Assembly: GCA_963706725.1 (NCBI GenBank)
Contig: OY970167.1
Location: 1,269,965-1,301,964, forward strand
Reading direction: 5' to 3'
Origin: an uncultured Actinomycetota bacterium
Lineage (GTDB): Bacteria; Actinomycetota; Thermoleophilia; Solirubrobacterales; Solirubrobacteraceae
DNA: 32,000 nucleotides
Positions 9,371-28,326 of the stretch are shown piece by piece (the stretch's first letter is position 1; each line of letters begins with the position of its first letter). The notes beneath the pieces are model-generated. The model made no database searches. It saw nothing but the letters and a program-made list of their open reading frames with translations, and was not told where the DNA came from. The translations under genes were made by a program, and so were the position numbers.

Positions 9371-9943
9371 GTGAAGACACAGCACCCGATCACCAGAACC
9401 GCGGCAGTAGCGATGGCCACCTCAGCCCTGGGGGTGCTGGTGGCAGCCTGTGGCGGCAGCCCCTCGTCCAGCCGCGCACAAACCTCAACGCCCGGAAAGG
9501 GCTCGACGCGCGTGCCGAGGGGGCTTGCCTACTCCCGCTGCATGCGCTCCCACGGCGTAACGAACTTCCCCGACCCGAGCCCCGCCGGGGGCTACTCCTT
9601 CAGTGGCTCCACCAGCTCACCTGCGTTCAAGTCAGCACAAAGAGCGTGCGCGAACCTGGTACCGGTGAAGACCATCCCCAACTCGGCAAGCGCCACCCCG
9701 CAGCAGCAGGCGCGGTATAACGCGCAGCTGATCAGATGGGCGAAGTGCATGCGTCACAGCGGGTACCCGCAGCTCCCTGATCCGACCCCCGGCAGCCCCC
9801 AACCGGGCAAGGTCCGCGGGACAGCTTGGGGAGGCGGGCCGGGCTGGTGGATCGACATCCCGCCCTCAATCAACGCGTACTCGTCGGCCTTCAGCAACAC
9901 CGCGCAGACCTGCGACACGCGGACCCACCAAACGTACCGCTAG
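9371..9943 (+). CDS. Secreted lipoprotein with a duplicated CMRxxG-PDP cysteine motif
   Basis: It has a signal peptide with the lipobox LVAAC (MKTQHPITRTAAVAMATSALGVLVAACGG). Two repeats are present: RCMRSHGVTNFPDPSP and KCMRHSGYPQLPDPTP. It is divergent from the two-component operon. Confidence 0.75.
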   Translation: MKTQHPITRTAAVAMATSALGVLVAACGGSPSSSRAQTSTPGKGSTRVPRGLAYSRCMRSHGVTNFPDPSPAGGYSFSGSTSSPAFKSAQRACANLVPVKTIPNSASATPQQQARYNAQLIRWAKCMRHSGYPQLPDPTPGSPQPGKVRGTAWGGGPGWWIDIPPSINAYSSAFSNTAQTCDTRTHQTYR

Positions 9944-9949
9944 ACCAAT

Positions 9950-10090
9950 GGTCTCGCGCACAACCCGAGCCGCTGTCTTGTGTGCCGCAACCGCCACAGC
10001 CCACACCTCCGCAGGCGAACCCCCAACGACCCGATGCGAACACCGATTGTGGTAATGCACCACGACCGACGCCGGCAGCGCAATGCACAC
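9950..10090 (-). pseudogene. Possible short remnant of the C-terminal end of an rve-integrase/transposase
   Basis: The minus-strand translation ALPASVVVHYHNRCSHRVVGGSPAEVWAV loosely resembles the conserved W..HYN..RPH.ALGG.TPAE tail of IS3/IS481 transposases. It is surrounded by frame-broken sequence with no other coding signal. Confidence 0.3.
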
Positions 10091-10122
10091 TTGTCAGCAC
10101 CTGATGGCCGCCATCGGCTACG

Positions 10123-10150
10123 GATCAAGAGGCTACCCATAGCCTTGATC
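10123..10150. repeat. Interrupted palindrome / stem-loop GATCAAG(AG)GCTA-CCCA-TAGC-CTTGATC
   Basis: Read directly from the sequence: 11 paired positions with a 2-nt bulge and no downstream T-run. It lies between the lipoprotein gene and the hydrogenase operon. Confidence 0.4.
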
Positions 10151-10375
10151 GGGAGACACAGATCAGCACGGCAGATGGCGCGGGAGCCTTGCCCGGCGAT
10201 CGCTGCTGCGCCACAGCCCGGCGCTGGGCTCCGCAACGACCGCCGGAGACCTCCCCCCAAACCAGGATGAGACACATCTCGGGTTAGACACACAATCGGG
10301 ATGTGGGGAAGCCCTGATTGCCGGGCTTGTCGGAGGCGTCAGACTTCGCGGACAGCGATCAGAGCGAGGGTCGAC

Positions 10376-11518
10376 ATGCAGCACCAGGAGTTGACGCCAA
10401 TGGTGATTGGGCCGGAGGCACTTGACCTGCTGATCGCAACGCTGCGGTCTGGCGGGTTCCGGGTGCTCGGCCCAACGCTGCGCGACGGTGCGATCGTCTA
10501 TGACGACATCCAGAGCGCGGCACAGTTGCCAGCCGGCTGGACTGACGAGCAGGACGGCGGCAGCTACCGGCTGGTGCGCCGCGACGATGACGCCCGCTTC
10601 GGCTACGCGGTCGGCCCCCACTCGTGGAAGCGATTCCTTTTCCGACCTGAGCTACGACTCTGGCAGGCGCGGCGATCCGGCTCGGGCGAAATGGTCGTCG
10701 AGGAGGAGTCCACCTCAGACCAGCGGATGGCCTTCATCGGGGTGCGCTCCTGTGAGCTGCACGCGATCCAGATCCAGGACCGTGTCTTCATGGGCGGGCA
10801 TCACGTGGACCGCGACTACGCGGCCCAGCGTGAGGGCGCATTCCTGGTCGCGGTCAACTGCATAACCCCCGGCGGGACCTGCTTCTGCACGTCGATGGGC
10901 ACAGGACCCAAGGTCGACGCCGGATATGACATTGCGCTGACGGAACTGCTCGTCGGAGATCACCGGTTCCTGGCCGAGGCCGGGACAGAGCGTGGCGCAT
11001 CCGTGCTGGCGGCACTTCCGGGACGACCCGCCAGCGACGCGGATCTGTCCTGCGCCGGAGCAGCAACCGACGCCGCCGCCGCACAGATGGGACGCACGAT
11101 GGAGGTCAGCGACATTCGTGACCTGCTGGCGCGCAACCTCGAGCATCCGCGCTGGGACGACGTTGCCGCCCGCTGCCTGAGCTGCGGAAACTGCACACAG
11201 GTTTGCCCCACTTGCTTCTGTTCCTCTGTCGAGGACAGCAGCGACCTCAGTGGCGGCACGGCGACGCGCACGCGCGTCTGGGACACCTGCTTCTCCGTCG
11301 AGTACTCCCATATCCACGGGGGCAGCATCCGCCCCTCGTCCCGTTCGCGCTACCGGCAGTGGATGACACACAAGCTGGGCACCTGGATCGACCAGTTCGG
11401 GACTTCGGGGTGTGTCGGCTGCGGACGTTGCATCACCTGGTGCCCGGTCGCGATCGACATCACGCAGGAAGTCAACGCGATCCGCGCGACGGAGGGTTCC
11501 AGTGCAACGATCGCTTGA
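10376..11518 (+). CDS. hyhB: [NiFe]-hydrogenase group-3b-type beta subunit (AsrA/HydB-like 4Fe-4S dicluster protein)
   Basis: It carries the Cys clusters [16 protein letters not shown] and [12 protein letters not shown], plus [15 protein letters not shown] lies 6 nt upstream of the ATG at 10376. It is the first gene of a hydrogenase cluster. Confidence 0.85.
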
Positions 11519-11972
11519 GACCTTGCTGGTCGACACCCCGCTGTTTGAGGGCCTCGACGCGGACACGCTCGCGCTGCTGGCAGGATGCGCCAGGAACGTC
11601 CACTTCGATCAGGATTCGACGGTGATCCGGCGGGGAGACCAGGCGGACGACTTCTACCTGATCCGTCACGGCAGCGTGACCCTTGAAACGTACGTGCCCG
11701 GTCGCGGGCCGGTCACGATCGAGACGCTCGAGAGCGGCGAGGTGCTCGGCTGGTCCTGGCTATTTCCGCCATACCGATGGCACCTGGATGCGCGGGCGCT
11801 GACCGCCGTGCGTGCGACCGCCTTCGACGGCGCATGCCTGCGCGGCAAATGTGAGCACGACCCAGCACTCGGCTATGCGCTGATGTCCCGCTTCGCACAG
11901 GTCCTGATCGAGCGCCTGCAGTGGACACGGCTCCGACTCCTCGACGTCTACGGTGACCATGAGCATCGCTGA
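11502..11972 (+). CDS. Stand-alone cyclic-nucleotide-binding-domain (CAP/Crp effector-domain-like) protein with no DNA-binding domain
   Basis: [49 protein letters not shown]...[25 protein letters not shown] has the cNMP-binding beta-roll pattern. The GTG at 11502 is preceded by GGAGGG at a 5-nt spacing and overlaps the hyhB stop by 17 nt. The protein is 156 aa. Confidence 0.8.
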
Positions 11973-12792
11973 GCAGCTCACCCCGGGCGTGATGGTGCCT
12001 CGAGCATTCAACCTCAGCGCCCGTCGGCAGGACACGGCCGACACGTTCACGCTGGCGCTCGAGCCGCAGGCCGGCGAGGCGCCGCCGATCGCCCCGGGTC
12101 AGTTCATGATGGTCTACGCGTTCGGGATCGGCGAGGTGCCGATCTCAGTGAGCGGGGCGTCAGCAACAGAGGTCGTGCTCACAGTCCGTGCGGTCGGCGC
12201 GGTGTCGAACGCGATCTGCCGTGCGCCGGTCGGCAGCATGCTCGGGATGCGCGGTCCGTTCGGAAATTCGTGGCCGATCGCAAGCGCCGCCGGCACTGAC
12301 GTGATCGTGGTGGCGGGCGGCATCGGTCTGGCCCCGCTGCGCATGCTGATCCGGCAGGTGATCGGCAACCGCGGCGACTTTTCAGCTTTCTGCCTTCTCT
12401 ATGGCGCGCGCACGCCGGGGGACCTGCTCTACATGAACGAGATCGCGGGCTGGCGTCAGGCTGCGGATGTGGCCGTCACGGTCGACGCCGCGGACGCCGA
12501 CTGGACGGGCCAGGTGGGTGTGGTTCCGAAGCTGGTCAGCGCTGCGCGCTTTGCCGGCAGGTCCGCCCACGCCTTCGTCTGCGGCCCCGAGATCATGATG
12601 GACTTCACGGCCCAGGCTCTGCTCAAACGTGGCGTTCCCCCGGAGCAGATCCACCTCTCGATGGAGCGCCACATGGACTGCGGGGTCGGGCTGTGCGGGC
12701 ACTGCCAGCTCGGTCCGACCCTGATCTGCCGTGACGGCGCCATCTATAGCCACGCCGAGATCGCATCGTTGATGCGGGTGCGTGAGCTGTGA
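11953..12792 (+). CDS. hyhG: Hydrogenase gamma subunit (AsrB/PyrK-like FAD/NAD(P)-binding protein with a C-terminal 2Fe-2S site)
   Basis: It has a ferredoxin-reductase-type fold pattern ([27 protein letters not shown]) and the motif [10 protein letters not shown]...CRDG. The start is GTG at 11953 or ATG at 11959. Confidence 0.85.
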
Positions 12793-13562
12793 GCCCGACA
12801 GACAAGCCGACGCTGGCGGTTTGGAAGTTCGCATCCTGCGACGGCTGCCAACTGAGCCTGCTCGACCTCGAGGACGAGCTGTTGACGCTCGCGGGCGCGG
12901 TCGAGATCGCGGAGTTCCACGAGGCCACGAGCCACAACGTCGCCGGCCCGTACGACCTGTCGCTGGTCGAGGGCTCCATCACCACCGAGCATGACCTGCG
13001 GCGCATCCAGGAGGTGCGCCGCAGGTCCCGAGCGCTGGTGACGATCGGCGCCTGCGCGACCTCCGGTGGCATCCAGGCACTGCGGAACTTCGGTGACGTG
13101 GCCGAGTTTGCAGCCGCGGTCTACGCATCGCCGCAGTACATCTCGACGCTGTCCACCTCCACCCCAATCGCCGCGCACGTCGATGTGGACTACGAACTGC
13201 ACGGTTGCCCGATCGACAAGCACCAGCTGTTTGAGGTCATCAGTGCTCTGCTCAACGGACGCCGGCCCGCGATCGCTTCCACCAGTGTCTGCACCGAGTG
13301 CAAGCGCCGCGGGATCGTGTGCGTCACCGTGGCGCACGGCACCCCCTGCCTCGGCCCGGTGACACACGCCGGCTGTGGTGCACTCTGCCCCGCTTACAAC
13401 CGCGGCTGCTTCGGCTGCTACGGCCCCATGGAAACGCCAAATACCGACGCGCTGCTGCCGCTGCTGCGCGCTCGAGGTCTCGACGACGACGGTGTGCGGC
13501 GGGTCTTCCAGACGTTCAACGCGGCCGCTGAGCCGTTCCGTAGAGCCGTGAGCGATGGGTGA
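12789..13562 (+). CDS. hyhS: [NiFe]-hydrogenase small (delta) subunit, NuoB-like
   Basis: It contains [22 protein letters not shown] and the C-terminal cluster [13 protein letters not shown]...[15 protein letters not shown]...GCFGCYGP. It has a GTGA overlap with the gamma subunit gene. Confidence 0.88.
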
Positions 13563-14847
13563 ACGGCGCACAATCCGGACGGACTACCTGGCGCGCGTCG
13601 AGGGTGAGGGCTCGTTCACCGTCCAGATCGAGCACGGGCGCGTCGAGCACGCGGAACTGCGGATCTTCGAGCCGCCACGGTTCTTCGAGGCGCTGCTGCG
13701 CGGACGCCTGTTCACGGAGGCGCCCGACATCACCGCCCGCATCTGCGGGATCTGCCCGGTGGCCTATCAGACGAGCTCGATGAACGCCATGGAGAACCTC
13801 TGTGACGTCGAGGTACCGGAGCCGGTTCGCATGCTGCGACGGATGCTCTACTGCGGCGAGTGGATCGAGAGCCACGCGCTTCATGTGTACATGCTGCACG
13901 CGCCTGACTTTCTCGGCTACGCGGGCGCGGTCGAACTGGCGCGCGACGCCCCGCAGATCGTGGAGCGCGGGCTGCGGCTGAAGAAGGCCGGCAACGAGTT
14001 GATGCGGCTCATCGGCGGTCGCGAGATCCACCCGATCAACGTCCGGGTCGGCGGCTTCTACCGGGCACCGTCCAGACGAGAGCTGTCGACGTTGGTGGAG
14101 CCGCTGCGTCGCGCGCGCGATGAGGCCGTCGAGACCGTTCGTTGGACCGCCGGATTCGACTTTCCAGAGCGCGAGGTCGAGTGCGAACTGGTCGCGCTCT
14201 CCCATCCGGAGGACTACGCGATCGAGCGCGGCCGGATCCGGTCAGACCGCGGCCTCGACATCACCGTCCCGGAGTACACCGAGCATTTCGAGGAGGAGCA
14301 CGTCGAGCGTTCGACAGCGCTGCACTCGCATCTGCGGGAGCGCGGAACCTACCTGTGCGGCCCACTGGCGCGGTACTCGTTGAACCACGCGCAGCTCTCG
14401 CCACTTGCGCTCGAGCTCGCGCGTGAGGCCGGGCTCGGTGAGACCTGTCGCAATCCGTTCCGGAGCATCGTCGTGCGCAGCGTCGAGCTCGTCTACGCAT
14501 GTGACGAGGCTCTGAGGCTGATCGACGCCTACGAGGAGCCGGGATTCTCGGGGGTCGATGTCTCACCGCGGGCCGGGAGTGGGCATGGCGCCAGCGAAGC
14601 TCCGCGCGGGATGCTCTACCACCGCTACAGGATCGACTCCACCGGCACGATCCTCGAAGCGCAGATCGTGCCGCCAACCTCGCAAAACCAGCAGGCGATC
14701 GAGGATGACCTGAAGGACGTGGTCCAGCGCAACCTCGAGCTCGAGGACGAACGTCTGCGATCGCTGTGCGAGCAGACCATCCGAAACTACGACCCATGCA
14801 TCTCCTGCGCCACGCATTTCCTCCGACTGGAGGTCAGCGGCCGATGA
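13555..14847 (+). CDS. hyhL: [NiFe]-hydrogenase large (alpha) catalytic subunit
   Basis: The N-terminal Ni-binding motif is [10 protein letters not shown] (the canonical form is RxCGxCxxxH). The C-terminal motif is DPCISCATH, followed by the 9-aa extension FLRLEVSGR, as expected for an endopeptidase-processed precursor. Confidence 0.9.
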
Positions 14848-15344
14848 CTGATCCGCGGCACGTCGTGGTCTGCGTTGGAAACCGCTTTCGACGCGACGAC
14901 AGCGTCGGGTTGCACGTCGCAGACGGACTCCGGGAGTTGGTGCCCGAGGGAGTCGAGGTTCTCACCCTGGAGGGCGAACCGACCACGTTGCTGGACATCT
15001 TCGCCGGCTCAGAGCTCGCGATCCTGGTGGACGCCGTAGCAGCCGCCGCCGCGCCCGGAGTGATCCACCGGTTCGATGCGACCGTCGAACCCGTGCCCGG
15101 GAGCGTGTTCGGCACCTCGTCGCATGCCTTCGGCCTCGGCGAGACAATCGAGCTGGCCAGGACCCTCGGGAGGCTTCACGGCCGTGTTCTCGTCTACGGC
15201 ATCACCGGCGAGGACTTCGACGCCGGAGAGGGGCTGAGCCCGAGCGTCGCAAAAGCGGCTGATGCCGTCGCCGCCCGGATTCTCGATGACCTTGCAGTGT
15301 CAGTCCAGCAAGCTGCCCGAGCGAAAGGAGCGGACCGTGCATGA
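14844..15344 (+). CDS. Hydrogenase maturation endopeptidase (HycI/HoxW family)
   Basis: The sequence reads [23 protein letters not shown]...LAILVDAV...[14 protein letters not shown]. The GNxxxxDDxxG, D and H metal-ligand pattern is typical of this family. It has an ATGA overlap with the large-subunit stop. Confidence 0.85.
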
Positions 15345-15618
15345 GCACGCACTGATGGCCGATGTGACCCGAAAACTGGAGCAGACCGCGGCGGAGGCGG
15401 GCGCGAACCGAGTGACCCGGGTCGTCGTGCACCTCGGCGCCCTCTCCCACTTCACTCCGGAGCACTTCGAGGAGCACTTCGTGGAGGCCACGCGCGGCAC
15501 CGTCGCCGAAGGGGCCGAGGTTGTCGCGACGCTCGATACCGACATCACCTCCTCGGAGGCCGCTGATGTCATGGTGGAGAGCGTCGAACTCGAGGTTCCA
15601 GATCGGAAGGCAAGTTGA
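15337..15618 (+). CDS. hypA: HypA-like nickel metallochaperone lacking the CxxC...CxxC zinc domain (93 aa)
   Basis: A GTG start gives the N-terminus [62 protein letters not shown], matching the HypA MHE...IG.LS...PE.L.F.F pattern. AAGGAG lies 7 nt upstream. The whole protein contains no cysteine. Confidence 0.7.
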   Translation: MHEHALMADVTRKLEQTAAEAGANRVTRVVVHLGALSHFTPEHFEEHFVEATRGTVAEGAEVVATLDTDITSSEAADVMVESVELEVPDRKAS

Positions 15619-15851
15619 TGTGTCTCGGATCGATCGCACGGATAGTCGCCATTCGCAACGATGCCGGCGTGGCTGTCGGGCGGCTGGAGGATGGGTGTGA
15701 GGTTCCACTGTCGTTCGTTCCGCAGGCGCGCGTTGGAGATCGGCTGTTGCTGCATCTGGGCATCCCAGTCGAGGTCCTCGACCCCGACGCGGCTGAGGAG
15801 GCGTTGGCCCTGCGTGGAGCGAGCACAGAGCCGGGAGGCGATCAACGGTGA
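15618..15851 (+). CDS. hypC: HypC/HupF-family hydrogenase assembly chaperone
   Basis: It begins MCLGSIARIVAI, with the essential N-terminal Cys, and contains VGDRLLLHLGIPVEVLDPDAAEEA (HypC GDxVLVHxG pattern). The start was taken at the ATG at 15618, not the TTG at 15615. It is 77 aa. Confidence 0.8.
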   Translation: MCLGSIARIVAIRNDAGVAVGRLEDGCEVPLSFVPQARVGDRLLLHLGIPVEVLDPDAAEEALALRGASTEPGGDQR

Positions 15852-16750
15852 GCATCCGTAAGACAGGTATCGCGTTGGCGTTTGTCAGCGCCGTCATCAG
15901 CGGCGTGTCGATCTACGTCAACGGGTTGGGCGTCAAGCACTTTCCCGACGCGAGCGTCTACACAACCGCCAAGAATGGCGTCGCTGGGCTGCTCCTGCTC
16001 GTCGCACTCGTTGCCGTGCCCTCACGGCGCCCCCTTCCAAGGCCGAGACGACGGGCGGCTCTGCCGCTGCTCGCTGTGGCGGTCATCGGGGGTAGCGTGC
16101 CGTTCATCCTCTTCTTCGAGGGTCTCGCCCGGGCGCAATCGACGCAGGCCGCGTTCATCCAGAAGACGCTGGTGATCTGGGTGGCGATCCTGGCGGTCCC
16201 CCTGTTGAAGGAGCGCCTCCGCTGGCCGCACGCGCTGGCGATCGCGCTGCTGCTCGGTGGAGAGGCATGGCTTGCCGGTAAGGCCGGCCATATCGCGTTC
16301 GGCAGCGGCGAGGCGATGATCCTCGCGGCCACCCTGATGTGGGCCGTGGAGATCGTCTACGTCAAACGACTGATGGACAGCTTCGATCCGCGGCTGCTCG
16401 CCACCGCCAGGATGGCGCTCGGCGCGGTACTGCTGATCGCCTGGGTGCTGATCACGGGCAAGGCCGGTCAGCTGCTTGCGCTCAGCGGCGTGGAGTGGCG
16501 CTGGGTGCTGCTCACGGGCGTGCTCCTGGCCGGCTACGTGGGCACATGGTATGCGGCGCTGGCGTGTGCTCCCGCGGTAGACGTGACCGCAGTGCTCGTA
16601 TTCGGCGCAGTCATCACCGCGCTGCTGTCAGGCGCGTCCGGGTCGGCGTCGGTCAACGCCCCAGCCCTGCTGTTGGTGATCGCGGGTTGCGGGATCATCG
16701 CCTGGTCGCCACTGCGCGGCACTGATGCCCGATCTGCGAGCCCATCATGA
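15848..16750 (+). CDS. EamA/DMT-superfamily transporter (10 predicted TM segments)
   Basis: It has two repeated five-TM halves, highly hydrophobic, with typical EamA features (GGSVPFILFFEGLARA; ILAATLMWAVEIVYVKRL). It has GTGA and ATGA overlaps with the genes on either side. Confidence 0.75.
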   Translation: MSIRKTGIALAFVSAVISGVSIYVNGLGVKHFPDASVYTTAKNGVAGLLLLVALVAVPSRRPLPRPRRRAALPLLAVAVIGGSVPFILFFEGLARAQSTQAAFIQKTLVIWVAILAVPLLKERLRWPHALAIALLLGGEAWLAGKAGHIAFGSGEAMILAATLMWAVEIVYVKRLMDSFDPRLLATARMALGAVLLIAWVLITGKAGQLLALSGVEWRWVLLTGVLLAGYVGTWYAALACAPAVDVTAVLVFGAVITALLSGASGSASVNAPALLLVIAGCGIIAWSPLRGTDARSASPS

Positions 16751-17526
16751 ACGTCGCGGCGCAGCTACCCACCGCTCCCGGGCCGCTGCTGTTCGCGCGA
16801 TACGCATACCCGCCTAACGCGCTGGGACTGTGCGGAGCTGACGGCCCGCGCGAGCTGCTCGAATACGGGGATGCGCACGTGTCCGATCTCGGCCTGGCAG
16901 AGGTCGCGCGGACGTTTGACGGCGCATGGCCTTACCTCGAGCTGATCGCCGGCGCCAACGGCATCGGCGATCCACTCGACGCACGCGTGGTCGAGGCCTA
17001 TTGGGTCGGCAACGAGCTGCTCGGAAGCGTGAGCCCGAGCGACCTCGCACGCAATATCGCGGACAGGTTCAGCGGACGGATCGGGCGCGCCCGGGAGCAC
17101 ATCGACGACACGATCGCCGCCGGCGCCGTTCCTCACCACTGCTTCCACGTCTTCGCCGTGTACCCGTGGCTGGGACTGCTGCGTACCGGCGTGGTCGATC
17201 AGCCGCTGCACATCCTCGACCAATGCCGGATCACTCCCGCGGTGGTGGATTCAGTTGGGCCGCACGACACACTGACGGTCCTCGCCCGACCGCTCGGCTG
17301 GGCCGGCGGGCGGCTGTTCCTCGGAGAGCCGGCAGCGCGCGCGGTCCGCTGGCAGACCGACGGCCTCGCCTTCGTCACTGAGCCCCAACCGGGGGACCGT
17401 GTCTCATTGCACTGGGACTTCGTCTGCGACCGCCTCTCGCCGCGCTCGGCGAGAAGCCTCCTGGCCGCAAACGAACGCGCGATCCGGGCCGTCAACGTCG
17501 CGGGCGCGGCGGCGGGTCTCGCGTAG
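16747..17526 (+). CDS. Conserved hypothetical protein with a C-terminal HypC-like domain (possibly the actinobacterial hydrogenase-cluster-associated DUF family; not verifiable here)
   Basis: It is 259 aa with codon usage like its neighbours. The C-terminal segment QCRITPAVVDSVGPHDTLTV...PGDRVSLHWDFVCDRLSPRSARSL parallels HypC (MCxGxPGxVV...GDxVLVHxGFA...A). It is the last gene of the coupled operon. Confidence 0.6.
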   Translation: MNVAAQLPTAPGPLLFARYAYPPNALGLCGADGPRELLEYGDAHVSDLGLAEVARTFDGAWPYLELIAGANGIGDPLDARVVEAYWVGNELLGSVSPSDLARNIADRFSGRIGRAREHIDDTIAAGAVPHHCFHVFAVYPWLGLLRTGVVDQPLHILDQCRITPAVVDSVGPHDTLTVLARPLGWAGGRLFLGEPAARAVRWQTDGLAFVTEPQPGDRVSLHWDFVCDRLSPRSARSLLAANERAIRAVNVAGAAAGLA

Positions 17527-17534
17527 GCCGAGCT

Positions 17535-19105
17535 TCAGCGTGGTCGCGCTGAGACAAGGCTGTGATCGTAGTCCGCGGCCCTGAGCTGCGGAAGCAGCCG
17601 GCGCTGTTTTCGGTGGTGGCGCTCCATCCGCCGCAGGATGTCGTCGAGCACGCGGATCGCTTCAAGGATCTGCGGGCCCTTGTTCAGCATCACGCACTCC
17701 GCGCCGCCTGCCATCGCAGCGTCTGTTATCTCCGCGCGTGTCGGTCGTCCAGTCTTGGCGAGTTGGTCGAGGACCTGCGTGGCCCAGATGACCGGCACGT
17801 GCGCCGCCTGACACAGCCAGAGGATCTCCTCCTGGACCTCCGCAAGCCGCTCGTAGCCGCATTCGATCGCAAGGTCTCCACGCGCGATCATCACACCCGA
17901 TGGCCGACCGCTGCCGAGGGCCGCCAGCAGCATGGCCGGCAGATGCTCGAACGCCCGCTGCGTCTCGACTTTCAGGATCATTCCCACACCTGCTCGCGAG
18001 TGCTCGTCCAGATACTCGCCGACGCGTTTCACGTCCCCGGCGTGACTGATGAACGACAACTCCACGACATCTGCGTAGTCGGTGGCGAAGCGCAGGGCAT
18101 CCTGGCTGTGAGTACCGAGCAGATCGATGTCGAGTGCCGCATCAGGCAAATTGATGCCCTTGTCCGGACGGAGCTTCGAGCCGTTGTGGCCGGCCGCGGT
18201 GATCCGCAGCTCGATCGTGTCGGTGCTGACGGCGTCAACGATCCCGCCGAGCTTGCCGTCGTCGAACCAGACATGGTGACCTGGCATCGTCCCGATGAAC
18301 GCCTCGTCGAGCGAGCAGATCACCCGAGGCGGCTCACCTTCACTCGTTGTGGCCTTCCCGCCCGTCCCGGCACGTGTGAGCAGCAGCGAGTCCCCAACGC
18401 GCAGCCGCAGGTAGAAGCCCTTGGCGTCCCTTGTCGTCTGTGCGGACAGCAATCCGGTACGCAGCTTTGGACCGGGCAGATCGACGAAGATCCGCGCGTG
18501 CTTACCTGTTCGCTGCTCCACCTCCCGTAGGTGTTCGCACATCGCGCCCAGTGCTCGCGTTCGTCGTGAGCGCAGTTGATGCGCACGCAGTCCATTCCGG
18601 CATCGAGCAGCTCACGCACCAGGCTCGCGTCGGTCGCGGCCTCCGAGGGCATCGTCACCATGATCCGCGTCGGTCGTTTGCGTCGTGCCGAGCCAAACAG
18701 GGCGACGGCACGCTGCTCGAGGAGTTGCCTACTCCCGGCAAAACCAATCGGCGCCGGCTCGGCGAACGAGTGCGGGGAGTGCTCGGTGAGCGCCAGCAGT
18801 GCGCCGAGGACGGCGTCGACGCTCGCCTGCACGTGGCCCTCATTGCCTCCCAGCGACGAGAGGCCCAGCTCTATCAGGGTGTATTGGGCGTCGCGCAGGT
18901 CGTGTCGACGGAGTGCCAGGTACTGCAGCAGGTTGCGGGCGCTCGCGTCGGTGTCCGATTGGCACTCGGAAGTCCACGGCGTCCAGCGCTCTGCCACCTC
19001 CAGCAACTCGGAGCGGATCTCCGACAGCTGATCAACCAGCCCCGCTGCTTGCTCGACCATGTAGTAACGATGTCCCAACCGCGTCTGTTCAGCATCGTGC
19101 TTCAT
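17535..19105 (-). pseudogene. Pyruvate-kinase-family protein with a ~140-aa N-terminal helical extension, interrupted by a 1-nt frameshift near 18543-18546
   Basis: The upstream frame reads MKHDAEQ...NLLQYLALRRHDLRDAQYTLIELGLSSLGGNEGHV...RPTRIMVTMPSEAATDASLVRELLDAGMDCVRINCAHDEREHWA. The downstream frame reads (A)MCEHLREVEQRTGKHARIFVDLPGPKLRTG...MILKVETQRAFEHL...MIARGDLAIECG...TQVLDQL...PTRAEITDAAMA. The catalytic PK motifs are intact on both sides of the shift. Confidence 0.8.
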
Positions 19106-19383: not shown

Positions 19384-20647
19384 GTGATGCCCGACGCTCG
19401 GCTGCACCTGTCCTCGGTCGCCGGTAGCCCGCTGCTCGACTCGGCGGGTGAGCGGCTCGGGCGGGTCGAGGATCTGATCGTCCATCTCGGTAGCGATCAC
19501 GAGTTGCCGCCGGTTACCGGTGCCGAGGTACGGATCGGTGGCCGGGAGATGTTCGTTCCGATCAGCAGCATTCGGCAGCTCGAGCCCGACACTGTCCAAA
19601 CGACGACGACGAAGCTGGACCTGGCACAGTTTGAGCGCCGACCGGGAGAGGTTCTGCTGCGGGCGGACGTCCTCGGGCGGAGTTTGATCAACCACGCGAC
19701 TGCCCGGCTGGTCAAGGCCCGCGAGGTTGAGCTGGTGAATGATGGCGATACGTGGCGCGTTGCAGGGATCCATACCAGCCGTGGACCTGGGATCAGGCGG
19801 TTGTTGCCCCGCTACTTCCGTGGCCACGAGCACGATCATGCGGAGTTCGTGCCGTGGCCGGAGGTGGAGTTGCTCGTCGGGCACGTCCCTACGTCCCGGC
19901 TGCGGCTTGGGTCCCGTCGCCTCAGGCGCCTGCACCCGGCGCAGATCGCCGATCTCGTGGAGGCCGCGTCACACGCTGAGGGGGCGGAGATTCTCGAGGC
20001 GGTCGGGCGCGATAAGGAGCTCGAGGCGGATGTTTTCGAAGAGCTCGACGATGAGCACCAAGTCGAGTTCCTGAAGGAGCGCTCCGACGCGGAGATCGCG
20101 GACGTCCTCGCTCGTATGGCCAGCGACGACGCAGCCGACCTGCTTCTTGAGATCGAGCAGGACCGCCGTGTTCCCGTGCTTCAGCTGCTGCCGGCCGCCA
20201 AGCAGCTGAAGATCAAACGCCTGCTTGGCTACAACCCGTCCACCGCGGGCGGGCTGATGAACCCCGACTTCAGGTCCGTGCCGGCCACCGCCACCGTCGA
20301 GCAGGCCCTCGCGCTCGTGCGTGACAGCGGACTCGCCCCGGGCCAACTGCTGGCGCTATGGGTCCTCGACACGCAAGAGCAGCTTGTCGGGTGTGTCCTC
20401 GCCTCCGAGCTCGATTCGCGCCCAGCCGGGCGCGATCATCACCACGCTCATCGAGACTCGAATCCCGACTGTCTCTCCGGAAACGGAGCTTCCCGAGGTC
20501 GCTCGCCTCATGGCCGATTTCGACCTGCTCGCGATCCCGGTCGTTGACAGCGGGGAGAAGCCGATCGGCGTCGTCGCGTTCGACGACGTAATGGAACTCC
20601 TCCTCCCGGACGAATGGCGTCGACGTGGTGGAGACGCACGCGGATGA
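19384..20647 (+). pseudogene. Soluble PRC-barrel + MgtE N-terminal domain + CBS-pair protein (MgtE cytoplasmic sensor module without a membrane domain), with a frameshift near 20410-20416
   Basis: The MgtE_N pattern is HPAQIADLVEAASHAEGAEILEAV...DDAADLLLEIEQDRRVPVLQLLP...LLGYNPSTAGGLMNPDF. The first CBS domain ends ...LVGCVLASEL. The sequence continues in the +1 frame as IRAQPGAIITTLIETRIPTVSPETELPEVARLMADFDLLAIPVVDSGEKPIGVVAFDDVMELL. No TM segment is present. Confidence 0.8.
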
Positions 20648-20677
20648 CCGGTTCTGACACGGACGGCACGGGCGCTG

Positions 20678-22348
20678 ATGGCGCCCGAAGATAGCCCCGC
20701 CGCACCTGAGGCCGCGGGCTCCGACCCGACCTCGCGAGTGCGCGAGCGCTTCGTGCTCGACGCCGCTCACGTAGGTGACATCGAGGGCGCGTTCGGCACC
20801 ATCAGCCAGCATGAGGGCCGTCGCCGCGGGCTACACGCACGGGCGCTGGCACTGCTCGCGATCATGGGCCCAGGACTCATCGTGATGGTGGGCGACAACG
20901 ACGCAGGCGGGGTCGCGACTTACTCCCAGGCGGGCCAGAACTACGGCACGAGCCTCCTCTGGGTGCTGCTGCTGCTGATCCCCGTGCTGATCGTCAACCA
21001 GGAGATGGTCGTCCGACTTGGTGCCGTCACCGGCGTCGGTCACGCCCGGCTGATCAATGAGCGCTTCGGCAAGTTCTGGGGGTGGTTCTCCGTCGGCGAC
21101 CTGTTCCTATTGAACTTCCTCACCATCGTCACCGAGTTCATCGGGGTCAGCCTTGCGCTCAGCTACCTCGGAGTCTCGAAGTTCGTCGCCGTTCCGCTCG
21201 CTGCAGCAGGACTCGTCGCGATCACGGTCACCGGCAGCTTCCGCTCATGGGAGCGGTCGATGTTCATATTCGTCTTCGCCAACCTCTTCGTGATTCCGCT
21301 CTTCTTCATGGCTCATCCCAACGGGTCTGACATCGCCCACAACTTCTTCGTCCCAGGCATTCAGGGGGGCGCGAACTCCAGCTCGGTGCTGCTGATCATC
21401 GCGATCGTTGGCACGACGGTCGCTCCGTGGCAGCTGTTCTTCCAGCAGTCCAACATCATCGACAAGCGCATCACACCGCGCTGGATCAACTACGAGCGCC
21501 TCGACACGTGGATCGGTGCCGTCGTCGTGGTCCTAGGCGCCGCTGCGCTCATCTGCATCTCGGCCTTCGCGTTCCACGGCACCCCGGCCGCCGGTCACTT
21601 CAGTGACGCCGGCGCGACCGCCACCGGCCTCGAGCGCCACCTCGGTTCACCCGCCGGTGCCCTGTTCGCGATCGTGCTGCTCAACGCCTCTCTGATCGGC
21701 GCCGGCGCGCTGACGCTCTCTACCAGCTACGCCGTCGGTGACGTATTCGGCAGCCACAGCTCACTGCATCGCAGGTTCGCCGACGCCAAGCAGTTCTACG
21801 GAATATTCGCCGCGATGATCGCCGCGGCTGGCGGCATCGTCCTCATACCCGGCGCACCACTAGGCGTGATCACCGAATCGGTTCAAGCCCTCGCCGGGGT
21901 CCTGCTACCGAGCGCCAGCGTGTTCCTCCTGCTGCTCTGCAACGACCCTGAAATCCTCGGGCCATGGCGTAACCCAGGCTGGTTGAACATTCTCGCCAGC
22001 GTAATCGTCGCGATCCTCGTACTGCTCTCGCTGGTCCTGATGGCGACCACCGTCTTCCCCAACATCGACGTCACGGCGGTCGCCCTGATCGGCGGCGCGC
22101 TACTGGCCGTTGGGCTCCTCGCATTCGGGCTCCTCACCCTTCGCTCACAACGCGGCGCCATCGCAGCGCCCGTGCCCGCGACCTCGACTCGGATCCCAAA
22201 AGAGCAATGGACGATGCCCCCGCTGGCCCTGCTCGCGCGGCCGCAGTGGTCCACCGGACGCAAGATCGCGATGCTCACACTTCGCGGCTATCTCATCATC
22301 GCGATCATCCTCCTGCTGATCAAGGCCATACAACTCGGTGGCGGATAA
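20678..22348 (+). CDS. NRAMP/SLC11-family transporter with NRMT-like (Mg2+-type) binding-site substitutions and an extra C-terminal TM tail
   Basis: The TM1 motif is MGPGLIVMVGDNDAGGVATYSQAG, with DAGG in place of the canonical DPGN. The TM6 motif is IVGTTVAPWQLFFQQS, with T..A in place of A..M and W in place of H. The protein is 556 aa and strongly hydrophobic throughout. Confidence 0.85.
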   Translation: MAPEDSPAAPEAAGSDPTSRVRERFVLDAAHVGDIEGAFGTISQHEGRRRGLHARALALLAIMGPGLIVMVGDNDAGGVATYSQAGQNYGTSLLWVLLLLIPVLIVNQEMVVRLGAVTGVGHARLINERFGKFWGWFSVGDLFLLNFLTIVTEFIGVSLALSYLGVSKFVAVPLAAAGLVAITVTGSFRSWERSMFIFVFANLFVIPLFFMAHPNGSDIAHNFFVPGIQGGANSSSVLLIIAIVGTTVAPWQLFFQQSNIIDKRITPRWINYERLDTWIGAVVVVLGAAALICISAFAFHGTPAAGHFSDAGATATGLERHLGSPAGALFAIVLLNASLIGAGALTLSTSYAVGDVFGSHSSLHRRFADAKQFYGIFAAMIAAAGGIVLIPGAPLGVITESVQALAGVLLPSASVFLLLLCNDPEILGPWRNPGWLNILASVIVAILVLLSLVLMATTVFPNIDVTAVALIGGALLAVGLLAFGLLTLRSQRGAIAAPVPATSTRIPKEQWTMPPLALLARPQWSTGRKIAMLTLRGYLIIAIILLLIKAIQLGGG

Positions 22349-22488
22349 CCCAGTCAGGAAGTGCACAGCCGACGACCGACCGGGCAGACACGGACGGGTG
22401 CTTCCGCCCGGTCTGGCATGCTTCGCGATGCGTGGCAGCGGGTTCGCGGGCGCGCGGGCGCGACGCGGGATCTGGGAGACTGGGTCCC

Positions 22489-23133
22489 ATGTCGCAGCAA
22501 GGCCCGCCTCGCATCGCAGTCATGACCGGGGAGGCGGGTGACGACGATTCGCTTCCGGACCGCGCTCGATTGCGTCGTCGCGGTTTTGCGCTCGAGGGCG
22601 CGACGCTCGCTTGGAATGTCGTCGGTGTTGTCGTCCTGGCGCTCGCGGCGATCGCCGCCCGCTCGGTGGCACTCGCCGGCTTTGGGCTCGACTCGTTGAT
22701 TGAAATCGGCGCATCGACCGTAGTGATTTGGGAACTCGCCGGTACCAACGAGGACCGCCAGGAGCGTGCGATGCGATGGATCGGAGGCGCGTTCGCCGTG
22801 CTGGCCGTGTACCTCACGGTCCAGTCGACCTGGGTGCTGATCGCCGGCTATCACGCCCATTCGAGCCTCGCCGGGATGGTCTGGACGGGGATCACGGCTG
22901 TGGTCATGTTCGCCCTGGCTTATGGCAAGGGTGTGACCGGCCGCGCGCTGGGCAACCCGGTGCTGGAGACTGAGGCGCGGGTGACTGTTGTGGACGGGAT
23001 CCTCGCGGTGGCTGTGCTGGTCGGGCTGGCCTTGAACGCCATCGCGGGGTGGTGGTGGGCCGATCCGGCTGCCGCCTTCGTACTCGTGTTCTACGCGGTC
23101 CGTGAAGCTCGCGAGACGTTGCTCAAGTCCTGA
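22489..23133 (+). CDS. Short cation-efflux (CDF-like) membrane protein without a cytoplasmic C-terminal domain
   Basis: The sequence RRGFALEGATLAWNVVGVVVLALAAIAARSVALAGFGLDSLIEIGAS..., with six hydrophobic segments, is typical of TM-only CDF-like proteins. The ATG at 22489 was chosen because the longer ORF start at 22207 overlaps the NRAMP gene. Confidence 0.7.
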   Translation: MSQQGPPRIAVMTGEAGDDDSLPDRARLRRRGFALEGATLAWNVVGVVVLALAAIAARSVALAGFGLDSLIEIGASTVVIWELAGTNEDRQERAMRWIGGAFAVLAVYLTVQSTWVLIAGYHAHSSLAGMVWTGITAVVMFALAYGKGVTGRALGNPVLETEARVTVVDGILAVAVLVGLALNAIAGWWWADPAAAFVLVFYAVREARETLLKS

Positions 23134-24740: not shown

Positions 24741-25625
24741 TCAGGAGCTGCTTGCGACAGGTTGATCGGCGTGGTCATGGCTTCCGTGCGCTTCGCTCGC
24801 CGCCTCGGGCACCACCAGGACCGGGCAATGAGAGACACGCACGAGGTCTTGGTTCGTGCCGCCATGCAGGAGACGTCTCACGAGCCCGACCGACCGGGAT
24901 CCGACTATCAGGAGATCGACGGTGCCACCGGCAGCGATCAGCTGCTCGTTGGCGTCTTCGACGCTGACGTGCGGCTCAGACCCGGCAAGCGCCGCGATCT
25001 GGTTCGTGACAGCGTTCATCGGCTCCGGAGCCGGCGATCCCTCGTGTGTCGTTCCTGCATGGCGGAGGTACGCCGGAACATCCACCAACTCGGCTGTGGC
25101 CAGCTCGGCATTCAGCGCCATCGCCAGATCGCGGGCGACAGTTGCTGCCGCGCGGCTCGCACTTGAGCCGTCGTATGCAAGGCCGATCTTGCCGATCGCG
25201 GATGCCTTGTCCGCATATCCCACGGGCGCCACCGCAACGGCCCCGCGTACGGCCCTCAGCGTGTCGCGGGTGTCGTCGCCGATGAATATGCGTGCCGCGG
25301 GACCGCGACGCGTGGCGCCGACGACCACCAGGTCAGCGGACTCGCGCTGAGCCAGCTCCTGAAGACCGTGACCTACCGTGGCTGCATCGTGTGCGACGTG
25401 GGACCGAATCCCGGTCTGCTCGGATGCCTGCTCCAGGATAGCCTGCGAGTCGACATGGCGGACGCGGTCATAGTCACCCGTCTCGCCCTTGGCGGCAATG
25501 GGATATCCCGCAACGATGTGCACAAGTACGAGCTCGCCGTCAGAAGCGACCAGCTGGCGAGCGAGGGCAGCGGCGTCGAGGCCACCACCATGACCGTCAA
25601 TTCCCACCAACACCTTGTGAAACAT
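24741..25625 (-). CDS. Tandem universal stress protein (two UspA domains)
   Basis: The first domain reads MFHKVLVGIDGHGGGLDAAALA...ADLVVVGATRRG. The second reads IGLAYDGSSASRAAA...VDLLIVGSRSVGLVRRLLHGGTNQDLVRVSHCPVLVV. AGGAGGG lies upstream of the ATG at 25625. Confidence 0.88.
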   Translation of the reverse strand: MFHKVLVGIDGHGGGLDAAALARQLVASDGELVLVHIVAGYPIAAKGETGDYDRVRHVDSQAILEQASEQTGIRSHVAHDAATVGHGLQELAQRESADLVVVGATRRGPAARIFIGDDTRDTLRAVRGAVAVAPVGYADKASAIGKIGLAYDGSSASRAAATVARDLAMALNAELATAELVDVPAYLRHAGTTHEGSPAPEPMNAVTNQIAALAGSEPHVSVEDANEQLIAAGGTVDLLIVGSRSVGLVRRLLHGGTNQDLVRVSHCPVLVVPEAASEAHGSHDHADQPVASSS

Positions 25626-25929
25626 CGAAAGCCCTCCTAATGAGTGTGACTTCAAGCTAAACCGCCCTTACCGCGCATACACCCGTGGACGGCCGGTGTT
25701 TGCGTGCGGCTTTGATGAGGCGGGGGTAGGGTCTGCCCACTTCTGCTGTGCGGGTTAATCCACCCGGAGGGCAGGCGCCGCGTCAGCAGCTAAGCGCCGC
25801 GTGAGCTCGGCGCCAGCAACACTCACGGCAGCCATGCCGGTACCACTGCTCGCCCCATCGCCCGCGCCCAAGCGACCTAGCTCGATCAGTGCTCCGCGGG
25901 GTGCGCGGCTGCAGAGGGACAAACGCGCA

Positions 25930-25959
25930 ACGCCCGCGCTGGCTTCCCAGCGCGGGCGT
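25930..25959 (-). terminator. Perfect 13-bp stem / 4-nt loop hairpin, a probable terminator of the 26057-26722 gene
   Basis: The hairpin is ACGCCCGCGCTGG-cttc-CCAGCGCGGGCGT, ~100 nt downstream of the minus-strand stop. On the minus strand it is followed by TGCGCGTTTGTCCC, a weak T-tract. Confidence 0.5.
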
Positions 25960-26056
25960 CCGTTCGGGGTTATGACGGAGGACCCCGGCGCTCTCGATTC
26001 GCGGCCCCGGCTCCCTGGTGAGGGTCGATCTGGGCCGCGAGCCGAAGTTCTTGTCG

Positions 26057-26722
26057 TTACGCGACCGGTGCGGTGCTGGTCGAGTCGCTCTGCTCGAGCT
26101 GCTCGAAGAGCCGCTCCTCGGCGGAGGTGCGGGCCGCGTGCCAGAGGCCGAGCGCGGTCAGCACTGCAAGCAGTGCGGCACCGGCGAAGGCGGCGACGGC
26201 GCCCCACAGCATGACCGTGCCGATCGTGCCGAAGGCATAGGCCTCCAGCAGCATGCCGCGCAGTGTCGTGCCCATGAAGGTCGTCGTCTTCAGTGCACTG
26301 AACTCGGTGTACGCCTTGCTACCGGGCTTGGCGGCCATCGCAGCACCGCTGATCACCGAATACACGCCATGGTCCGGCATCGCATACAGGTGCTGGCCGA
26401 TGAAATCGTTGGCGTAGACCTGCGCCTCCTTGCCGGTCAGGACCTGCTTGCCGGCATAGGGCTCGAGTGCACCGATCATCAACTTGGCGTTCGGGAACTC
26501 GGGATCGGTGACGGCCTTCTGGCCGCCCTTGGCGTACTGTGCCTTGACCGCGTTGATCTCGCTCTGCTTCGGGAAATAGACCTGCTGCTGCGCGAGCTGG
26601 TTGTGCACGTTGCTCTGCGCGAAACTATGGCCCCAAACCAGCAGACCACCAGTCACCAACAGAATCGCGACCAGTGCGGCACCAACACCCGACGTGATCT
26701 TGTCAAATACCTTGCGTTGCAT
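26057..26722 (-). CDS. Hypothetical bitopic/two-TM membrane protein with a large extracytoplasmic domain
   Basis: It has an N-terminal TM segment (GVGAALVAILLVTGGLLVW) and C-terminal TM segments (AFGTIGTVMLWGAVAAFAGAALLAVLTALGLW). A strong RBS (GAGGAGG) is present and the codon usage is good. No family was recognised. Confidence 0.7.
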   Translation of the reverse strand: MQRKVFDKITSGVGAALVAILLVTGGLLVWGHSFAQSNVHNQLAQQQVYFPKQSEINAVKAQYAKGGQKAVTDPEFPNAKLMIGALEPYAGKQVLTGKEAQVYANDFIGQHLYAMPDHGVYSVISGAAMAAKPGSKAYTEFSALKTTTFMGTTLRGMLLEAYAFGTIGTVMLWGAVAAFAGAALLAVLTALGLWHAARTSAEERLFEQLEQSDSTSTAPVA

Positions 26723-27248
26723 TCCGGGTTCCTCCTCTTTATTTGGGGTCCTTTAGTCCTCCGGGTTGCACGACGGATACTGCTCTCACGGCGGTGCTCG
26801 GGGATCGGGGCCAAGCACGCTTCCGGGGGTGGGATGCCCCTGTTTCCGGAGTGCGTAGTCAGGAACCGGCGAGCCCGTAGTTGCGAGCCGGCGACTACGT
26901 AGTTTCCGCGGGTGATTGCGAGCCGAGCTCGCCGCGGTTCGGCGCGTACCACCCCACGCCTCAGTCAGCCGGCCAGCCTTGGCTGGTGGCAGCCGCGGCT
27001 GGCTCACTCGGCAGGACCGCAGGGGAGCGCGGTCGCATCTCGCCGGGGAACGACGGTCGACAGGATCCGCGACGGGAGCAGTGAGCATCGGAGGGCGGCA
27101 CCCTGGCCGACTCGGATCAGGTTTGCTGGTGGTCGGGACGATGAGCAGCCCCGCGATCAGACCCCCCGCGATCAGCCGGTGAATCATGGCCCGGGCGCCA
27201 GGAGACGGGCGCCATCCCGAGCGCCCGAACCCGCGCGCGTCTACACGC

Positions 27249-27797
27249 CTATTTCTCCCACGCCGTCGCGATGGTCCGCGGTGCCTCGCCTCGGGCTGCC
27301 TCAGGGTCAGCGGTGTTCAGCAGAGCGGCCTCCTCGACGCTGGTCATCGGTATGACCAGGACGGGCCGCTTGCTGGCGGCAATCACGGCGGTCGAGATGC
27401 TGTCGAGCGTCGGGCCAGGGGTCCCGTGCCGATGGGCGCCGAGGACGATCAGCGAGCTGTCCTGCTCCTCCGCAACACGCAGAATCGTTGCGGGCACCGA
27501 CACCTCATTACGCGCGATCAGTGGCCTTGGCATCAGGCCGTGCTCGGCCGCGAGACGGTAACCCTCCTCGACCTTCTGCTGCGCGCTGCTCTTCGCCTTG
27601 TCGATCAATAGTTCGGCAGACGGGGCGTCCGGGTCTTCCCTGTAGTTGAACGAATCGGTTGCTGGCAGCGGCTCGTTCCAAACATGCAGCAGCGTGACAT
27701 CGTGGCGCGGGAACATCGCTCGGGCGAGAGTCGTCGCGGTGCGAATCACCGCAAGCTTGGCGCTGGGGGAGCCGTCGTAACAGACTAGGACTGACAT
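27249..27797 (-). CDS. Universal stress protein (single UspA domain with a C-terminal tail)
   Basis: The sequence reads MSVLVCYDGSPSAKLAV...LIVLGAHRHGTPGPTLDSISTAVIAASKRPVLVIP. AAGGAG lies upstream of the ATG at 27797. The longer ORF start at 27908 has no support. Confidence 0.85.
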   Translation of the reverse strand: MSVLVCYDGSPSAKLAVIRTATTLARAMFPRHDVTLLHVWNEPLPATDSFNYREDPDAPSAELLIDKAKSSAQQKVEEGYRLAAEHGLMPRPLIARNEVSVPATILRVAEEQDSSLIVLGAHRHGTPGPTLDSISTAVIAASKRPVLVIPMTSVEEAALLNTADPEAARGEAPRTIATAWEK

Positions 27798-28326
27798 GGC
27801 TTTCTCCTTGAGGCATTGTTGGTGCGCAGCTGGGCGGCAAATCAGGCCGAGTGATGGGGCGTAGTACGGGTGGTTGAACAGCTCAAGCGGACGCTCGCCC
27901 TGATCCACCGGGATCCAGAGCCACGGCTGCTCTGCTCACGCCTCCTGCTTGGCGCCCGGCTCATCTGGCACCTCCCGGTTCGTGTTGACTGCTGGCATCA
28001 AGTCTGGTGCGAGGCGTGTGCCAGGCCATCGGGTAGATGGTGCGGACCGCTACGGAGTGATGCCGGGCACCGACGCGGTGAAACAACGGATGCCCGCGCC
28101 GCCTACCACTGATTGGCCACTCGGGGGACTACCGAGATCAGCGCGGCGCATCGTCTGTCAGGCGAGGTGGTCGGGTCAGAGAAGAGCGCTCACGCGGGCT
28201 GGCGTAACGTCAGGTTGGCGTGCTGCGCGGGATATGCGGCGCCGCGTCGCGGCCCCGATCGGTGCCTGATGCGGTCCGGTGATGCCGGCGGGTTGCCATG
28301 CGCTGAGACACGACGCGGAACCCCTG

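Follow-up and report, generated by a model that had tools for sequence, protein, structure and literature searches.

How much of a bacterial group 3b [NiFe]-hydrogenase operon is standard, and how much is peculiar to a lineage, is the question raised by ten genes at positions 10376-17526 of a 32-kb window (32,000 nucleotides of contig OY970167.1, assembly GCA_963706725.1) from an uncultured soil member of the Solirubrobacteraceae, class Thermoleophilia, phylum Actinomycetota. Group 3b hydrogenases occur widely among soil bacteria and are thought to shed excess reductant as H2 when oxygen is short. In the literature consulted, the functionally studied examples are archaeal enzymes and the Hyh of Mycobacterium smegmatis (PMC13332983). 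A preliminary description of the window took M. smegmatis Hyd3/Hyh as its template, and saw two departures from it, namely a sensor-like gene in the middle of the operon and a tail of maturation genes without hypB, hypD, hypE and hypF. The analysis presented here indicates that the block is very probably a group 3b hydrogenase operon with a cyclic-nucleotide-binding (CNB) protein as a likely accessory subunit and a tail specific to this hydrogenase, the general Hyp machinery presumably being provided in trans.

According to the listing of open reading frames (ORFs), positions 10376-17526 are filled by ten ORFs on the plus strand, in a window whose G+C content is ~66% throughout. Four of them encode the structural subunits:

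10376..11518, plus strand: hyhB, beta subunit of 380 aa that resembles AsrA/HydB and has two 4Fe-4S motifs (Pfam Fer4_22, E 8e-32)
11953..12792, plus strand: hyhG, gamma subunit that binds FAD and NAD(P) and has a 2Fe-2S site (Pfam NAD_binding_1 and DHODB_Fe-S_bind)
12789..13562, plus strand: hyhS, delta (small) subunit (Pfam Oxidored_q6, 85 bits; NCBIfam ShyD, 182 bits, and HydD, 159 bits)
13555..14847, plus strand: hyhL, alpha subunit of 430 aa, large and catalytic (full-length matches to NCBIfam ShyA, 286 bits, and HydA, 232 bits)

The class of the enzyme follows from its large subunit and its partners. The closest PDB structures to HyhL are the alpha subunit of Pyrococcus furiosus sulfhydrogenase I (SHI; 9nez) and HyhL of Thermococcus kodakarensis (5yxy), both at E ~1e-63 over residues 7-425, against 1e-51 for Mvh (group 3c), 6e-37 for the soluble hydrogenase (SH, group 3d) and 1e-37 or weaker for Frh (group 3a), and among the NCBIfam models ShyA scores 286 bits against 149 for FrhA and 139 for VhuA. 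This ranking, together with the AsrA-like and AsrB-like partners, places the enzyme in group 3b. The Ni-Fe ligand motifs are present as RICGIC at residues 62-67 and DPCISCATH at 413-421, the latter being followed by a cleavable C-terminal tail of 9 residues, FLRLEVSGR. HyhG matches the NCBIfam models AsrB (195 bits), hydrogenase gamma (167 bits) and ShyC/HydG (~140 bits), and HyhB matches sulfhyd_HydB (146 bits) and ShyB (138 bits), both under the equivalog cut-offs. The group 3b subunit set, that is an AsrA-like beta, an AsrB-like gamma, a small delta and a large alpha subunit, is thus complete, which supports the prediction of a cytoplasmic, NAD(P)-linked [NiFe]-hydrogenase of the HyhBGSL type. 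The assignment to group 3b in the preliminary description therefore stands, backed by the full-length matches to SHI and HyhL, the CxxC motifs and the AsrA/AsrB-like partners.

It could be argued that such an enzyme acts mainly as a sulfur or sulfite reductase (sulfhydrogenase or AsrAB-like) and not as a hydrogenase, since the beta subunit matches AsrA at 118 bits, the gamma subunit matches AsrB at 195 bits, and the archaeal prototype bore the name sulfhydrogenase. Yet both scores lie far under the equivalog cut-offs, no AsrC-like sirohaem subunit is present, the large and small [NiFe] subunits are complete with their metal ligands intact, and the operon carries a dedicated protease, a HypA and a HypC. 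The sulfite-reductase reading, extremely improbable on these grounds, was rejected because AsrC is missing and the hydrogenase subunits are complete. In the hydrogenase as predicted, electrons would pass from NAD(P)H to the FAD and 2Fe-2S centre of HyhG, and from there through the 4Fe-4S clusters of HyhB and the clusters of the small subunit to the Ni-Fe site of HyhL, where protons would be reduced to H2 or the reverse reaction would take place. By analogy with M. smegmatis Hyh, its physiological role may be redox balancing under oxygen limitation. The four structural subunits lie in the same order as in P. furiosus SHI (HydBGDA), T. kodakarensis Hyh and M. smegmatis Hyh/Hyd3 (MSMEG_3931-3927), where a protease gene also follows, and the large subunit of the window can be aligned over its whole length with SHI alpha and HyhL. 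Unlike the archaeal enzymes and the Mycobacterium locus, the window has a further gene between those of the beta and gamma subunits:

11502..11972, plus strand: stand-alone protein of the cyclic-nucleotide-binding fold, 156 aa, candidate HoxI-like fifth subunit (Pfam cNMP_binding, 44.8 bits)

Whether this gene is an oddity of the window was judged from related loci. One genome per species was scanned with the large subunit, which gave 80 loci (L001-L080), and the ten window proteins were mapped onto them by tblastn; 72 of these loci had enough upstream sequence. The order beta-(CNB)-gamma-delta-alpha is kept in 67 of the 72, and the protease gene follows hyhL in 67 of the 72 as well. Among the 67 loci in which beta, gamma and delta precede alpha, 62 carry a gene with a cNMP domain between beta and gamma, and they span Actinomycetota, Alpha-, Beta- and Gammaproteobacteria, Acidobacteriota, Armatimonadota and Dormibacterota; the arrangement beta-CNB-gamma-delta-alpha-protease is conserved in this same proportion (62/67) across several phyla. 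The five loci without a CNB gene belong to Mycobacterium, Glycomyces and three Actinomycetales. In a neighbour-joining tree of the large subunit, which contains relatives only, they fall in two or three places within one clade of Actinomycetes, which points to secondary losses. With the CNB gene in 62 of 67 loci and secondarily lost in Mycobacterium, it is the M. smegmatis template that is exceptional, and a mid-operon sensor gene is the rule. The view that this gene departs from the standard was consequently not upheld, and the M. smegmatis-type locus taken as template is a derived form that has lost it.

The CNB gene has also been mentioned in the group 3b loci of Frankia (PMC11879354), Rhodococcus equi (PMC13332983) and a methanotroph (PMC12319191), and the same layout is annotated by RefSeq/PGAP on plasmids of Burkholderia thailandensis and Rhodococcus qingshengii. 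Frankia casuarinae (Francci3_4495-4500), R. equi 103S, B. thailandensis plasmid p1 and 'M. acidophilus' 29 all share the order beta-CNB-gamma-delta-alpha-protease with overlapping junctions (PMC11879354, PMC13332983, PMC12319191). The loci closest to the window come from metagenome-assembled genomes of Thermoleophilia (Conexibacteraceae, Gaiellales), with 80-88% identity in the large subunit. A mycobacterial origin was rejected on this basis, the large subunit of the Mycobacterium locus being only 59% identical; the accessory tail also differs from that of the M. smegmatis-type and archaeal group 3b loci. As a separate observation, four close homologues of the large subunit (L011, L037, L056 and L039; 61-66% identity) have no beta, gamma and delta genes directly upstream, and in one of them, that of Amycolatopsis (L039), beta and CNB are found at a distance of 6 kb, the intervening stretch containing hypF, hypD and hypE.

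What the CNB protein does is suggested by its fold and its family. Its AlphaFold2 (AF2) model (pLDDT 82.5) consists of a CNB beta-barrel and a 35-residue C-helix, with nothing further. In CRP, the equivalent helix forms the dimer interface. The fold comes closest to that of the sensor domains of actinobacterial CRP/GlxR, a likeness which, together with the Pfam cNMP_binding match, the JGI label 'CRP/FNR family transcriptional regulator' and the naming of the Frankia counterpart as a small transcriptional regulator (PMC11879354), would fit a small CRP/FNR-type regulator of the operon that senses cAMP or cGMP. Several features make such a regulator rather unlikely. No helix-turn-helix or other DNA-binding domain was found by Pfam in its 156 residues, and the model stops after the C-helix. 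The consensus of 60 orthologues from many phyla (Ge..G.SWL.pPyRW.fDArA ... CLR.Kce.D..lGY ... LDvYG) does not contain the canonical phosphate-binding cassette (G-E-x-A/G-x ... R-S/T-A), as the position of the cassette Glu is variable, being a Trp in the window protein, and there is no R-S/T-A; classical binding of cAMP or cGMP is therefore doubtful. The gene is wedged by overlaps between two structural genes (in the window by 17 nt with hyhB and by 14-20 nt with hyhG), and it keeps this position in the 62 of 67 loci. Finally, tandem-duplicated and HyhG-fused forms exist. The tandem CNB-CNB proteins (P0316-P0320, P0323; 300-348 aa) carry the GWSWLFPP signature in each half, and P0403, of 468 aa, is a fusion of CNB and HyhG with a 35-residue linker. 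In all, 213 clusters of relatives were found at E <=1e-30 among 1.84 billion representative proteins.

These features argue, with moderate confidence, for a subunit of the diaphorase half that is dimeric and has an accessory or regulatory function, and not for a transcription factor. Lying between hyhB and hyhG, it would most likely be analogous to HoxI of Cupriavidus necator, and its ligand is probably something other than cAMP or cGMP. HoxI (167 aa) is likewise a stand-alone CNB fold of ~160 aa, without a DNA-binding domain, encoded in a hydrogenase operon. In the soluble hydrogenase, HoxHYFUI2, it forms a dimeric subunit that can dissociate (PMC3189943), and it has been reported, as cited in PMC12319191, to be linked to NADPH. 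The CNB protein is 24% identical to HoxI over the full length (L086:14836-15339; pairwise E 4e-9). The two systems differ in that the C. necator enzyme belongs to group 3d and has a NuoEF-like diaphorase, whereas that of the window is AsrAB-like; hoxI is placed after the protease gene, whereas the CNB gene lies between the diaphorase genes; and the CNB family has a signature of its own. Likeness in sequence is at the level of the domain only.

The second supposed departure concerns the genes downstream of hyhL, the first three of which encode maturation factors:

14844..15344, plus strand: large-subunit C-terminal endopeptidase, HycI/HybD family (TIGR00072, 104 bits, cut-off 47; Pfam HycI)
15337..15618, plus strand: short HypA, 93 aa, nickel-binding domain only, zinc finger deleted (Pfam HypA, 40.8 bits, cut-off 28.9)
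15618..15851, plus strand: HypC paralogue, 77 aa (Pfam HupF_HypC, 43.6 bits, cut-off 28.5)

The HypC paralogue is canonical, with an MCLG start and the conserved His at H46. The HypA is not: it matches just positions 2-63 of the 112 of the Pfam HypA profile, and reaches 35.6 bits with TIGR00100 against a cut-off of 88.1. When aligned with full-length HypA, the window protein and its short-form orthologues show a deletion of ~17-20 residues that removes both CxxC pairs, and in this the preliminary description, which had called the protein a Zn-less HypA, was right. The V(M)-H-E start is invariant across the aligned short and long forms. Where canonical HypA has PxAxxFxF, the short family has a conserved His-rich PEHFREHF, which could be an extra metal site making up for the lost zinc domain. 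The short HypA follows the protease in 27 of the 72 loci, among its orthologues being the 95-aa protein of B. thailandensis p1, named HypA by PGAP. This zinc-finger-less HypA family is undescribed.

Pfam searches of every plausible ORF and a six-frame tblastn with the Hyp proteins of four organisms detected no HypB, HypD, HypE or HypF and no full-length HypA in the 32 kb, in agreement with the earlier statement on the four hyp genes; hypBDEF were not found within 8 kb in eight relatives with the same ten-gene order either. The tail of the Escherichia coli hyb operon consists of the hybD protease, the HypA paralogue hybF and the HypC paralogue hybG, with HypBDEF coming from the hyp operon. The window resembles it in that the structural operon bears just an isoenzyme-specific protease, a HypA paralogue and a HypC paralogue, and differs from it in that HybF keeps the zinc finger and the hyb tail has neither EamA nor DUF6390. 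Isoenzyme-specific HypA and HypC paralogues served by general Hyp proteins in trans are an established concept (PMC12134894), and the group 3b loci of Frankia (synton-4) are without hyp genes and never the sole hydrogenase locus in the genome (PMC11879354). As the tail of the window follows this established pattern, its lack of hypBDEF is expected and, contrary to what had been proposed, not a non-standard feature (PMC12134894, PMC11879354).

Other lineages keep these genes nearer. In the proteobacterial loci, hypF-hypC-hypD-hypE stand directly after the short hypA, and in five further loci (L007, L008, L016, L017, L080) hypF, hypD and hypE lie upstream on the opposite strand. HypB almost never stands beside this hydrogenase among L001-L080, even where hypF, hypC, hypD and hypE are adjacent, and its absence coincides with the zinc-less HypA. 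In the mechanism proposed here, the tail would supply the factors specific to this hydrogenase, that is the endopeptidase, a nickel chaperone (the zinc-finger-less HypA), an iron-cofactor chaperone (HypC) and the EamA/DUF6390 pair, with HypD, HypE, HypF and possibly HypB provided from elsewhere in the genome.

Unlike the loci of Frankia, Rhodococcus, Burkholderia and 'M. acidophilus', which end at the protease or go on with hypF-hypC-hypD-hypE, the window continues as short hypA-hypC-EamA-DUF6390. Its last two genes are the following:

15848..16750, plus strand: permease of the EamA/DMT family, 300 aa (Pfam EamA, 94.9 bits, two repeats)
16747..17526, plus strand: DUF6390 protein (PF19927), 259 aa, with a helical N-terminal domain and a HypC-like C-terminal barrel and helix (Pfam, 299 bits)

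The DUF6390 match covers positions 3-240 of the 244 of the profile, and its 299 bits compare with a cut-off of 25. The AF2 model is confident for residues 160-258, the C-terminal domain, whose top PDB match by Foldseek is HypC (2z1c; E 7.6e-3, TMt 0.68). A profile comparison with HypC by hhalign gives 82% and E 1e-5 over 37 columns that include the His. Four residues, C29, H131, C160 and H222, are invariant across members of the family that are 36-50% identical. When the domain is excised, C160 falls opposite the N-terminal Cys of HypC and H222 opposite its conserved His, an alignment partly forced by the trimming, which counts against this likeness. No relatives of the ~150-residue N-terminal helical domain could be detected. 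The naming of the last gene as that of a HypC-domain protein in the preliminary description is thus fair, though unproven; the family is annotated as DUF6390 and has sub-threshold HypC support. DUF6390 recalls HupF/HoxL and HupK/HoxV, extended HypC paralogues and ancillary maturation proteins found in aerobic hydrogen oxidisers, as it has a HypC-like domain with Cys and His at matching positions and stands beside hyp genes in Mycobacterium, Sulfobacillus and Thermoleophilia. Unlike in those factors, its HypC-like part is C-terminal, after a 150-residue helical domain, and the Cys is internal and not at position 2. It is best regarded as an uncharacterised, hydrogenase-linked family and a candidate maturation factor, which would act as a HypC-like accessory protein. 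No paper mentioning DUF6390 was found in the literature.

It is also conceivable that EamA and DUF6390 are unrelated passengers trailing the hydrogenase operon. Neither has a demonstrated function, EamA is a broad family of metabolite exporters, and the flanking genes are otherwise non-syntenic between relatives. This is improbable, given the distribution of the two genes. Both of their junctions overlap by 4 nt. EamA lies between hypC and DUF6390 in all eight ten-gene relatives (L001-L006, L071, L074), and hypC-EamA-DUF6390 is kept, without hypA, in two metagenomic loci (L088, L089) whose DUF6390 is just 54-57% identical to that of the window. EamA and DUF6390 also adjoin each other after the protease in L059 and L076. 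DUF6390 closes hypF-hypC-hypD-hypE clusters in four further loci (L060, L083, L084, L087), namely on a plasmid of Mycobacterium intracellulare, on a Sulfobacillus plasmid beside a group 1 hydrogenase and in two uncultured actinobacteria. The HypC-like domain itself also speaks for a part in maturation. In M. intracellulare, the gene that follows DUF6390 is not an EamA, and no close homologue of the window EamA was found in the plasmid collection. The cluster of one uncultured actinobacterium (L087), of the form hypF-C-D-E-hypC-DUF6390, contains a 972-aa HypF with a fused N-terminal protease domain of the HycI type (L087:3201-6119); NifU, DUF5947 and DUF6084 lie upstream of this hyp cluster, and downstream, on the other strand, there is an operon of the order beta-CNB-gamma-delta-alpha-protease.

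A more far-reaching reading, to be taken as tentative, joins both accessory parts. Most bacterial group 3b enzymes would have the CNB protein as a fifth subunit, dimeric and present in stoichiometric amounts, which would sense a ligand other than cAMP or cGMP, for instance NAD(P)H, and gate the diaphorase, and hypC-EamA-DUF6390 would be a dedicated maturation module. In it, DUF6390 may serve as a HypC-like carrier or protector of Fe(CN)2CO for several hydrogenase groups in aerobic Actinomycetota and Sulfobacillus, and the EamA permease may move a required small molecule or metal complex. The CNB protein is absent from the studied archaeal enzymes and from the Mycobacterium locus examined; if it is a regulatory subunit, the model organisms miss a layer of control present in most bacterial enzymes. 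DUF6390 and the zinc-less HypA, if they act as suggested, would extend the list of maturation factors needed for the heterologous expression of such enzymes.

As the CNB gene and the hypBDEF-less tail are known already, the window is an ordinary example and no exception. The ten-gene order as a whole, which had been presented as departing from the template, proved on comparison to be typical of a Thermoleophilia lineage, being common to the eight loci mentioned above, and within it the conserved hypC-EamA-DUF6390 module is undescribed. The residual novelty thus lies in this module, in the zinc-less HypA family and in a candidate role for the widespread CNB protein.

All nine junctions of the block overlap, by 17, 20, 4, 8, 4, 8, 1, 4 and 4 nt when the starts best backed by motifs and homologues are used, as the preliminary description had stated, with the same sizes, for every junction from hyhB on. 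The second overlap, between the CNB gene and hyhG, is 20 nt and would be 14 nt if hyhG started at the ATG at 11959. The start of hyhB at ATG 10376 is backed by homologue alignments from residue 1 and by a Shine-Dalgarno-like stretch, GAGCGAGGG; that of the CNB gene is anchored by an independent and identical public gene call of exactly 156 aa, that of HypA by V-H-E, which corresponds to the MHE nickel motif, and that of HypC by MCLG. Further support comes from homologue alignments that open at residue 1. In orthologous loci annotated independently all junctions overlap too, which indicates a conserved property and not chance, and supports the earlier view of a tightly coupled single block. Scans of the block, with models that fit high-GC Actinomycetota poorly, detected no sigma-70-like promoter or intrinsic terminator inside it. 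The ten genes are predicted to form one transcript.

Several results pull against the overall interpretation. The equivalog cut-offs of NCBIfam, derived from Thermococcales enzymes, are not reached by the structural subunits. The likeness of the CNB protein to HoxI is weak, as tblastn at E 1e-3 did not return pHG1 and the CNB signature motifs are absent from HoxI; the CNB-HyhG fusion has a single representative, and a HyhB-CNB fusion (P0404) was dropped as evidence since its C-terminus looks frameshifted and is likely an assembly artefact. The N-terminal 56 residues of the DUF6390 model are unreliable, and the protein reaches 15.1 bits with Pfam HupF_HypC (E 0.027), under the cut-off of 28.5. 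Nothing points to the substrate of EamA. The provision of HypBDEF in trans in the source genome is suggested by analogy with other systems, and the single transcript by gene layout and by promoter and terminator scans ill-suited to high-GC Actinomycetota, which is weak evidence.

Upstream of the operon, one non-coding feature deserves mention:

9944..10375, plus strand: 432-nt intergenic region, presumed promoter/operator from its position upstream of hyhB

No sigma-70 consensus was found in it. It contains short direct repeats, GGATGAGACACA and GGGTTAGACACA, at 10265-10292, 16 nt apart, and a third copy, GGGAGACACA, farther upstream; the repeats fall within 10150-10292, ~85-225 nt before the hyhB start, and may be an operator. 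A histidine kinase and an OmpR-type regulator are encoded upstream on the opposite strand, and between the response-regulator gene and hyhB there is an ORF (9371-9943, plus strand) with a lipobox-like LVAACGGS and no Pfam match. The flanking genes and the 956-nt stretch upstream of hyhB (9421-10376) are not conserved in the 80 related loci, so a link between the operon and the divergent two-component system could not be supported. Rfam and tRNA scans found no Rfam families or tRNAs in the window.

Downstream, a convergent ORF (17535-18542, minus strand) encodes the barrel only of a pyruvate kinase, its stop being 8 nt from that of DUF6390 with no terminator detected; its Pfam match begins at profile position 48, so that its N-terminus may be missing or miscalled. 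It is followed by a metal-transport cluster (19384-23133, plus strand) made up of a PRC-barrel/MgtE_N/CBS protein, an Nramp transporter (272 bits) and a CDF-like ORF; no recognised nickel transporter was found in the window. Farther on (24741-31719, minus strand), two pairs of ABC-transporter genes are interspersed among four genes for universal stress proteins, a stress- or hypoxia-like neighbourhood that recalls, by analogy only, the DosR-regulated region around M. smegmatis Hyd3, where universal stress proteins are also found nearby (PMC2799521).

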